From assembly GCF_013167455.1 (NCBI RefSeq), contig NZ_CP038328.1: a DNA stretch of 64,000 nucleotides, one strand, 5' to 3'. The DNA is from Escherichia coli O157:H7. GTDB lineage: Bacteria; Pseudomonadota; Gammaproteobacteria; Enterobacterales; Enterobacteriaceae. The translations under genes and the position numbers were made by a program. Positions 47,334 through 48,423 of the stretch are shown here, one piece after another. Under the pieces are notes generated by a model. It did no database searches. It saw nothing but the letters and a program-made list of their open reading frames with translations, and was not told the origin of the DNA. Numbering within the stretch: position 1 is the stretch's first letter; each line of letters begins with the position of its first letter.

Positions 47334-47445
47334 GACGGAATGTAAGAACGAAAATTTATTCCGAGCCGCTACGGAAGATGAAAAACGCAAGGTTGTTGAA
47401 AGCGTTGTGTTTTTTTATGGTAGTGCCGTCAGCAGGAATGTTGTC

Positions 47446-47490
47446 CAGGGCGAAAAGCTTCTTCCTCGTTTCGCCCTGCCTTTCTTAAAA
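47446..47490 (+). terminator. hairpin downstream of thiH (likely thi operon terminator)
   Basis: CAGGGCGAAA..TTTCGCCCTG 10-bp stem followed by CCTTTCTTAAAAATT. Confidence 0.55.
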
Positions 47491-47718
47491 ATTCCGTAAT
47501 GCAAAGTCTGAAGCCATCGCCTGTTGAGCAATGAAAGAGATCTGATTGTAAGAGAGTAAATACTCAACTATGATAGAGACGAAAATAAGAACACATGTTC
47601 TCATCTTCCAGGATGCAGCAGACTGAAGAAATTCAGACATCCCGCAACCTGCGATTATCGCAAGGTCAAGGCAAAGTCCGGTAATGGCGTTCTGAATACC
47701 AGAGATAATTCTCTGGCG

Positions 47719-47749
47719 AAACCCACCTTAAGGTGGGTTTTGTTATTTT
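47719..47749 (+). terminator. second plus-strand terminator-like hairpin in thiH-rpoC interval (possible 3' end of a small RNA)
   Basis: AAACCCACCTTAAGGTGGGTTTTGTTATTTT, GC stem plus T-run. Confidence 0.5.
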
Positions 47750-47767
47750 GAGGGCTGAGGAAGCTGC

Positions 47768-48211
47768 TTATTTCTCAATAAGTTTTAGGCAATGGTGAAA
47801 AATTTCACTGAAAGCCCTGAACACAACAAAGTAAAATGCCTTATCTCCTCCGTCTAAGTCCACCTCAATCACGGCATAGCTACCATACCCGGCATGAATA
47901 ACGTTGCTTTCTGGCAGCGCCAAAATAGTTCTTTTTAAGTGTGTGCGCGCTAAGTTATAACGGTGCTGGCAGAAGGGACGAGATTCTTTAGGCGCGTGGT
48001 ACATTAACGATAGTTTTTCTTCGTTCGTCTGATGTTCATAATCTTTTGTGAAGCAGTGAAGAGAGTAGGTAACCCAAAAGCGATACTCTAAAGGCTCCTT
48101 GTCCTCATGATGCTGAACGTAGATAACCTGATGAGCATCAAGAAACGATAAATCACGAACGTCGCCATCCGGATGTTTAAAAGGTCGCCACTTCTCCACT
48201 TCCTGTTTCAT
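47768..48211 (-). CDS. hypothetical 147-aa protein at the position occupied by yjaZ/htrC in K-12; identity not confirmed
   Basis: ORF MKQEVEKWRPFKHPDGDVRD... with AAGGA RBS; in-frame stop three codons upstream prevents extension; AT-rich surroundings. Confidence 0.5.
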   Translation of the reverse strand: MKQEVEKWRPFKHPDGDVRDLSFLDAHQVIYVQHHEDKEPLEYRFWVTYSLHCFTKDYEHQTNEEKLSLMYHAPKESRPFCQHRYNLARTHLKRTILALPESNVIHAGYGSYAVIEVDLDGGDKAFYFVVFRAFSEIFHHCLKLIEK

Positions 48212-48374
48212 TCTCGTTCCTTAAGAAAGCTACACAGGAATAGTATCGAATCCTTGCCGAGTTTGACTCAATTAGTTCAGTCAGTTTCAGGATATTAGTC
48301 ATCTCTACATTGATTATGAGTATTCAGAAATTCCTTAAATATTCTGACAAATGCTCTTTCCCTAAACTCCCCCC

Positions 48375-48402
48375 ATAAAAAAACCCGCCGAAGCGGGTTT
48401 TT
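48375..48402 (-). terminator. rpoC terminator (bidirectional-looking)
   Basis: CCCGCCGAAGCGGG hairpin flanked by A-run on the left and T-run on the right. Confidence 0.8.
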
Positions 48403-48423
48403 ACGTTATTTGCGGATTAACGA

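Follow-up and report, generated by a model that had tools for sequence, protein, structure and literature searches.

Convergent genes for a protein and an RNA, overlapping at their 3' ends, are known among type I toxin-antitoxin (TA) pairs, for example txpA/RatA and bsrG/SR4. The nearest counterpart of the locus described here lies in Escherichia coli K-12, where the MG1655 reference has the order yjaZ, also called htrC (b3989, end 4190325), sroH, which specifies the small RNA (sRNA) SroH (b4691, 4190327-4190487, opposite strand), and thiH. SroH was discovered in 2003 (Vogel). We have analysed the same interval in a 64,000-nt stretch of E. coli O157:H7 DNA (RefSeq assembly GCF_013167455.1, contig NZ_CP038328.1; the window below), in which the gap between thiH and rpoC very probably holds two already annotated E. 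coli features, SroH and a frameshifted yjaZ allele; this high confidence covers only the identity of the two, and not the RNA-protein partnership or the TA-like role discussed later. Taken by itself the locus in the window is ordinary, as its members belong to known families and are publicly annotated. Comparison across genomes shows, at the level of sequence, that yjaZ and sroH together make up a two-gene cassette, mobile between chromosomes and plasmids and ranging from enterobacteria to cyanobacteria. This observation may be new: in the limited literature collection searched, nothing was found that links sroH with htrC or with a TA role.

In K-12, SroH has been mapped by 5'-tagRACE and RNA-seq as a primary transcript with processed forms and a polyadenylated 3' end (PMC5389530). 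One target, kbl mRNA, was confirmed in vitro by INTERFACE-guided electrophoretic mobility shift assay, EMSA (PMC6172242), and the RNA is induced about 2.6-fold after AZT treatment (PMC11228462). The sroH deletion is viable in K-12 and is reported to be envelope-stress sensitive (cited in PMC5389530), and the gene is absent from B2 and D strains, through what was inferred to be secondary loss (PMC3318445). On the protein side, htrC mRNA was quantified and is detectable in strain EDL933 (bioRxiv 10.1101/480244), and the heat-shock assignment of htrC has been retracted (PMC11551758).

yjaZ and SroH-type RNAs on chromosomes and plasmids

Relatives of YjaZ are nearly all about 180 aa long and have a scattered distribution (an E. 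fergusonii plasmid, large Enterobacteriaceae plasmids, Pantoea, Aeromonas, Oceanimonas and cyanobacteria), surrounded by plasmid and mobile-element genes. By tblastn the family is found on 560 PLSDB plasmids, including ColE1-type plasmids of 2.46 kb (pB1022 / pEc184_6 type), and has no match in the phage collection. We picked close-family yjaZ loci by the protein alone, with enough flanking DNA (n = 21; the loci outside the E. coli chromosome are L005, L008, L013, L015, L016, L018, L019, L021, L022, L120 and L125-L133). An SroH-type RNA adjoins yjaZ in every one of the 21 loci, which span Enterobacterales plasmids, Aeromonas, Oceanimonas, Thiothrix, Vibrio and cyanobacteria, so SroH is half of a mobile RNA-protein cassette and not an E. 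coli-specific RNA. The two genes converge in 20 of the 21 loci, with the RNA ending where yjaZ does (in nearly all loci its 3' end overlaps the yjaZ stop codon or is 1-3 nt from it). The exception is the Vibrio parahaemolyticus plasmid pTJ187-1, whose YjaZ is 35% identical: there the RNA (L121:1758-1933, +; 75 bits, E = 2e-17) directly precedes yjaZ on the same strand, with 29 nt between the end of its terminator and the yjaZ start codon. No conserved neighbouring ORF was found beside yjaZ across these contexts, and in the window no other gene separates yjaZ from sroH on one side or from rpoC on the other.

Searching from the RNA side, with a pattern made from two invariant RNA blocks only, gave 83 loci in viral and metagenomic contigs. 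They contain 42 distinct RNAs, and the adjacent yjaZ is intact in 27 of these, disrupted in 7 and missing in 8 (tblastn). An exact-pattern scan of species-representative genomes matched only E. coli, as the pattern used was long, specific to E. coli SroH and too strict.

Some individual loci show further features. Two 2462-bp ColE1-type plasmids, from Proteus and E. coli (L120, L128; one of the same size exists in Klebsiella), carry nothing recognisable as cargo other than yjaZ and the RNA. The RNA is intact in both, as is yjaZ in the plasmid from E. coli, but in the one from Proteus a frameshift has split yjaZ into two coding sequences. A DUF2913 gene adjoins the cassette in three plasmids (L018, L125 and L133, from Pantoea, Edwardsiella and Enterobacter huaxiensis) and a tyrosine recombinase gene does so in Edwardsiella and Serratia plasmids; these recurring neighbours may be common plasmid backbone. 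One lineage, represented by metagenome contigs L027, L068, L077 and L097, has an intact SroH-type RNA and no yjaZ. A canonical 96-aa RelE/ParE-type toxin gene is found there instead, convergent with the RNA and ending about 50 nt past its terminator, which may be a coincidence since such genes are common in mobile DNA.

The RNA itself shows strong covariation (a structure-independent MAFFT alignment of 49 distinct RNAs supports five helices). Standard pairs occupy 99.2% of the paired cells; the figure falls to 86% in shuffles and does not exceed 46% when the partners are slid. Both sides have changed in 14 pairs, and none of 500 shuffles matches the observed value on any measure. Compensatory changes are seen at five of the ten pairs of the SroH terminator. 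One pair is G-U in 46 of the 49 RNAs and would read C-A on the other strand, so the RNA lies on the SroH strand and not on the yjaZ strand. Between the stems there are near-invariant blocks (CAGCAGA, CCGGUAA, UCUGAAUA and GCGAA) which are kept from E. coli to cyanobacteria though the accompanying YjaZ proteins are only about 50% identical. Two further blocks are invariant partly by construction, as they made up the search pattern, though the RNAs that were located by way of the protein show no variation in them either. RNAalifold additionally paired ACC with the GGU of CCGGUAA, but in our judgement this pairing is an artefact caused by misalignment of the variable hairpin P3, and the structure that was tested does not include it. 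In 25 of 40 lineages, compared to 12% of shuffles, the 60 nt upstream of the RNA contain a promoter-like site matching at least 9 of 12 positions, and the commonest end point of the -10 element is 8 nt before the conserved GGAUG. The possibility that SroH encodes a small protein was considered and rejected, the frame starting at the AUG of GGAUG being 4-28 codons long or stopless depending on the lineage.

A distant YjaZ subfamily (28-35% identity) occurs on Pseudomonas and Klebsiella plasmids, several hundred of them from Klebsiella. Weak matches to the RNA model lie exactly at the convergent position in two of its loci (L122:2555-2693 and L123:2545-2687, both on the - strand). By inspection of these two sequences, the order of helices is unchanged, the loops are different (GUUACAGG, CCUGCCC and GCUGA) and helix P1 shows a compensatory change from GGAUG/CAUCC to GGGUG/CACCC. 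This suggests that the RNA loops co-diverge with the YjaZ protein in distant subfamilies.

Could the two genes simply travel together? SroH may be an ordinary trans-acting, base-pairing sRNA for unlinked mRNAs such as kbl, with yjaZ a neighbour through co-acquisition on one fragment, and we consider this unlikely. The binding of kbl mRNA in vitro (PMC6172242), the envelope-stress-sensitive deletion (cited in PMC5389530) and the AZT induction (PMC11228462) are what would be expected from such an RNA, and eight RNA lineages persist without yjaZ. However, the linkage survives transfer into unrelated sites in two phyla as well as a change in gene order, and the loops appear to co-diverge with the protein, none of which is expected from hitch-hiking; moreover, host-specific target mRNAs cannot be what the loops are tuned to, since these do not vary between E. 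coli and cyanobacteria. We would favour an RNA-protein partnership over a conventional base-pairing sRNA because the pair is inherited, transferred and diverging together.

The convergent layout brings to mind cis-antisense regulation, in which SroH would control yjaZ via convergent transcription and the shared terminator, as in type I pairs with 3' overlap. The close approach of the RNA 3' end to the yjaZ stop codon in nearly all loci is in line with this, and so is the terminator, which is palindromic and weak in the yjaZ direction (on the - strand a 9-bp stem, dG -13.8, followed by UUU only), so that yjaZ transcripts probably extend into antisense SroH. We nevertheless regard it as improbable, and rejected it as the main mechanism, because SroH, by RNAduplex energies, pairs no more strongly with the 5' region of its cognate yjaZ than with shuffled targets, yjaZ mRNAs show no recurring reverse complements of the invariant loops, and there is no complementarity beyond the shared terminator. 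Antisense pairing would need neither invariant loops nor a multi-helix fold. In the Vibrio plasmid no antisense overlap is possible, since the RNA is upstream on the same strand, and yet its core is conserved. In the window the frameshift and deletion in yjaZ have moved its stop codon to 22-26 nt from the SroH 3' end, compared to 1 nt in K-12.

The O157:H7 locus and its alleles

An earlier note on the window, made by a model from the sequence alone, had described an AT-rich interval with two plus-strand terminator-like hairpins and a 147-aa minus-strand ORF, and had placed an sRNA, SroH, near htrC and thiH in K-12. All of this is borne out. The G+C content is 40-45% across 47300-48500 against 53-62% on both sides (calculated over 300 nt at a time). 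Rfam family RF00372 matches 47581-47741 (+) over its full length (161 nt, model positions 1-161 of 161; 201.1 bits against a gathering score of 80, E = 7e-51), placing SroH between thiH (end 47333) and yjaZ (47768-48211, -), on the thiH strand and ending in an intrinsic terminator, in the same position and layout as in the K-12 RefSeq record. The core common to all relatives corresponds to 47609-47745, where a covariance model built for this analysis scores 138 bits, and 47581-47608 is a 5' hairpin restricted to the E. coli lineage. A sigma-70-type promoter-like site, identified by consensus only (47546-47574, +; TTGTAA, 17 nt, TATGAT; 9 of 12 positions), stops 7 nt before the Rfam 5' end.

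Folding supports both hairpins (a simple terminator scan had missed them because of a loop longer than 8 nt or a G-interrupted tail). The second one is the terminator of SroH (47714-47745, +), palindromic and usable from both strands, with a U-run after the stem; on the + strand it has dG -20.6 kcal/mol and z -4.8, with 0 of 200 shuffles as good. The first one is the intrinsic terminator of the thi operon (47446-47487, +), a 10-bp G+C-rich stem (47446-47478; dG -15 kcal/mol, z -3.4, equalled by 0 of 200 shuffles) followed by CCUUUCUU, and it is kept in all three structural alleles described below, including that of ST131, which has neither yjaZ nor sroH.

For the second terminator the earlier note had left open either a separately transcribed sRNA or a processed fragment of the thiH 3' untranslated region, and only the former stands. 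SroH does have the orientation of thiH, 248 nt downstream of it, and processed forms of the RNA exist (PMC5389530), but an origin by processing of the thi operon transcript is very improbable indeed: the strong thi terminator lies in between, the promoter-like site is 7 nt 5' of SroH, a primary transcript has been described (PMC5389530), SroH-type RNAs with their own promoter are found in many genomes and plasmids with no thiH nearby, and ST131 has the thi terminator without sroH. Judged from sequence, SroH is shown to be an independently promoted (by the promoter-like site), terminated and structured RNA.

The same note had hesitated to equate the 147-aa ORF with yjaZ/htrC, with good reason: the ORF is yjaZ, with the same flanks as elsewhere (rpoC on one side, sroH and thiH on the other), but it is not full-length. 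In BLASTP against the 179-aa K-12-like YjaZ, 128 of 136 residues are identical (94%) and the sequences diverge after that. RefSeq calls the product 'protein HtrC' (WP_000808338.1). The NF007263 profile gives 311.4 bits over positions 1-137 of 179, which is under the curated cut-off of 324, compared to 426.8 for the K-12-like protein. The N-terminus is fixed, as had been noted, by an in-frame TAA four codons upstream of the ATG, with three codons in between, and a Shine-Dalgarno sequence, AAGGA, is found at 48219-48223 in the 5' region of the gene (48212-48378, -); for a yjaZ promoter no - strand site passed the promoter-like scan. AFDB entry C3SI97, a 147-aa E. coli protein of the length of the O157-type allele and 85% identical to the K-12-like YjaZ query, is labelled 'Thiamin biosynthesis protein ThiH' in UniProt and AFDB, an annotation error from the neighbouring gene.

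The interval is not colinear with K-12, the thiH-rpoC gap being 1090 bp here and 1161 bp there. Three-way alignment reveals a 71-bp deletion, with its junction between 47807 and 47808 and CTGA microhomology at 47808-47811; in the intact allele a copy of CTGA lies on either side of the 71 bp, as would be expected if slippage between the two direct repeats had caused the loss. Beyond codon 135 the deletion puts translation into another frame, which is closed by a stop after 12 codons, so residues 1-135 are those of YjaZ, residues 136-147 are out of frame and the conserved C-terminal block is replaced by SEIFHHCLKLIEK. The family's conserved C-terminal 43 aa are gone, and with them 12 of 26 near-invariant positions (E136, K138, R141, H143, S146, A147, Y148, F161, I164, L168, L174 and P175), including the FREKKKLRLHxxSAYP motif. 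In the AlphaFold model (pLDDT 90) the lost segment is the last long beta-strand and the C-terminal helix, whereas the predicted N-terminal sheet and long helix are retained. Since the deletion removes the family's most conserved segment, the 147-aa YjaZ is most likely inactive or badly impaired, that is, a pseudogene or a crippled form. In the retained codons omega is about 0.44, compared to about 0.07 between intact members, so constraint looks relaxed, although the numbers are small (9 nonsynonymous and 5 synonymous changes).

The deletion junction, probed with 40 nt, is present in 308 of 5426 complete E. coli genomes, and the serotype-labelled carriers listed are all O157:H7 or O55:H7. The 147-codon frame also occurs in an O55:H7 genome, whose interval matches that of the window at all but 1 of 1090 bases (V130A), which dates the deletion before the O55/O157 split. 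The intact 71-bp segment is found in 3427 complete genomes. In about 1700 of 5420 genomes, including ST131, the yjaZ-sroH block (approximately 47496-48371 in the window) is missing altogether, at a query coverage of 20% or less. The ST131 interval is 241 bp long and contains both terminators; at the place of the block of about 0.9 kb it has about 30 nt that can be aligned in part. It therefore looks like a deletion and not an empty insertion site, i.e. like secondary loss of the block in ST131-type genomes, in agreement with PMC3318445.

It could be argued that the 147-aa ORF is instead a functional, lineage-specific short YjaZ. The frame is open and fixed in the 308 genomes across O55:H7 and O157:H7, NCBI annotates it as a protein, htrC mRNA is present in EDL933 (bioRxiv 10.1101/480244), and the model would keep the N-terminal sheet and long helix. 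We find this rather improbable, if less so than antisense control, given the loss of the last long beta-strand, the C-terminal helix and the near-invariant residues, the profile score below the family cut-off, the omega of 0.44, a further change (A130V) since the O55/O157 split and the independent disruptions of yjaZ in other lineages.

In other E. coli-type sequences yjaZ has been disrupted independently, by a frameshift that splits the tblastn match in two, by a truncation close to residue 156 and by loss of part of the 71-bp segment (H110). In the E. coli-type metagenome contigs L050 and L103 yjaZ is disrupted and sroH unchanged; assembly errors are possible there. Divergence of the window from a K-12-like genome is uneven along the region: 17/600 in the thiH 3' end (46734-47333), 0/165 in sroH, 14/405 in the retained yjaZ codons, 1/212 upstream of yjaZ and 2/600 in rpoC (48424-49023). 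A recombination mosaic is one possible cause, and relaxed constraint on yjaZ another.

The flanks are standard. thiH (46200-47333, +) is a 377-aa ORF and the last thi operon gene on this strand, annotated in RefSeq (identical record) as 2-iminoacetate synthase ThiH. On the other side the ORF list has the rpoC stop codon starting at 48424 (-), and the terminator of the rplKAJL-rpoBC operon (48379-48402, -), a 10-bp stem with a seven-U run, is present in all three alleles. Rfam hits far under the gathering scores, to rsmX, Trp and Leu leaders and istR at the rpoC terminator and to the rnk leader and hammerhead II at the SroH terminator, reflect only the terminator hairpins and were rejected.

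A possible RNA-protein partnership

What could such a cassette do? On the evidence above, transcription of the thi operon stops at the first hairpin, about 100 nt further a separate, predicted promoter drives the 161-nt structured SroH, which ends at the second hairpin, and yjaZ faces it from the rpoC side. We propose that SroH would act through YjaZ, as a specific RNA-protein pair, by binding and restraining a RelE-like protein in an addiction or defence module like type III TA, and O157 would keep a harmless RNA half together with a dead protein half.

A specific pair is suggested by the invariant loops, the covarying stems, the co-divergence and the linkage that does not depend on gene order. 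We put it forward as a tentative reading, in which the likeliest form is an RNA that restrains a RelE-like YjaZ. Somewhat more doubtful is the addiction- or defence-type module, RNA-restrained, which is suggested by the plasmid habitat, the tiny plasmids with only this cargo and the recurrent loss of the protein with the RNA kept. The same degree of doubt applies to the broadest version, that YjaZ-SroH is a previously unrecognised mobile module of a RelE-fold protein and a dedicated, non-repetitive, multi-helix RNA antitoxin, of which the O157:H7/O55:H7 locus would be a relic. YjaZ weakly resembles the RelE/ParE fold. PHROGs has no match to it, the PDB searched by sequence and by profile has nothing relevant, and a Pfam-A scan of the full-length protein matched no family (precomputed tables give PF27200).

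Several observations weigh against these proposals. The viable sroH deletion in K-12 (cited in PMC5389530) argues against strong toxicity. Tandem Repeats Finder (minimum score 30) found no tandem repeats in 47400-48400, and PADLOC had no match to YjaZ. The asymmetry of decay between RNA and protein is partly a sampling effect, since a search that begins with the RNA requires the RNA to be intact.

The comparison gives two orphans, SroH and a yjaZ whose heat-shock role has been retracted, a concrete and testable link, and E. coli offers the natural genotypes: both parts are intact in K-12-type strains, the RNA is intact and the protein truncated in O157/O55:H7, and neither is present in B2/ST131. 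If an addiction or defence module is indeed involved, it would be a new RNA-controlled system common on clinical Klebsiella, Serratia and Enterobacter plasmids.

Comparison with known systems

SroH of the window is the same as RF00372 and K-12 b4691 in sequence, position, orientation and terminator, and only the partner gene is different. The Rfam model annotates the terminator alone as structure, compared to the five helices found in the 49-RNA alignment. Likewise, YjaZ is at the same locus and has the same start as the described YjaZ/HtrC (NF007263, PF27200), with residues 1-135 94% identical, but the window copy is truncated. Unlike RelE/ParE toxins of type II systems, yjaZ has no adjacent, co-transcribed protein antitoxin gene. 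The type I pairs txpA/RatA and bsrG/SR4 share with the cassette the convergent arrangement of a protein gene and an sRNA, with a common terminator where their 3' ends meet; however, YjaZ, at 179 aa, is a soluble-looking protein of mixed alpha/beta fold and not a small hydrophobic peptide, and the overlap with SroH is limited to the terminator and does not exist in the Vibrio arrangement. From type III systems (ToxIN, CptIN and TenpIN) the cassette differs in that SroH is a single multi-helix unit without tandem repeats, the genes converge in the window instead of standing in tandem with the RNA upstream, and YjaZ weakly resembles the RelE/ParE fold and not that of ToxN/AbiQ. With the same systems it shares a protein gene obligately linked to the gene of a small structured RNA with its own terminator, carriage on plasmids and co-divergence of RNA and protein, and the Vibrio variant has the very order found in ToxIN, that is RNA, terminator and protein.

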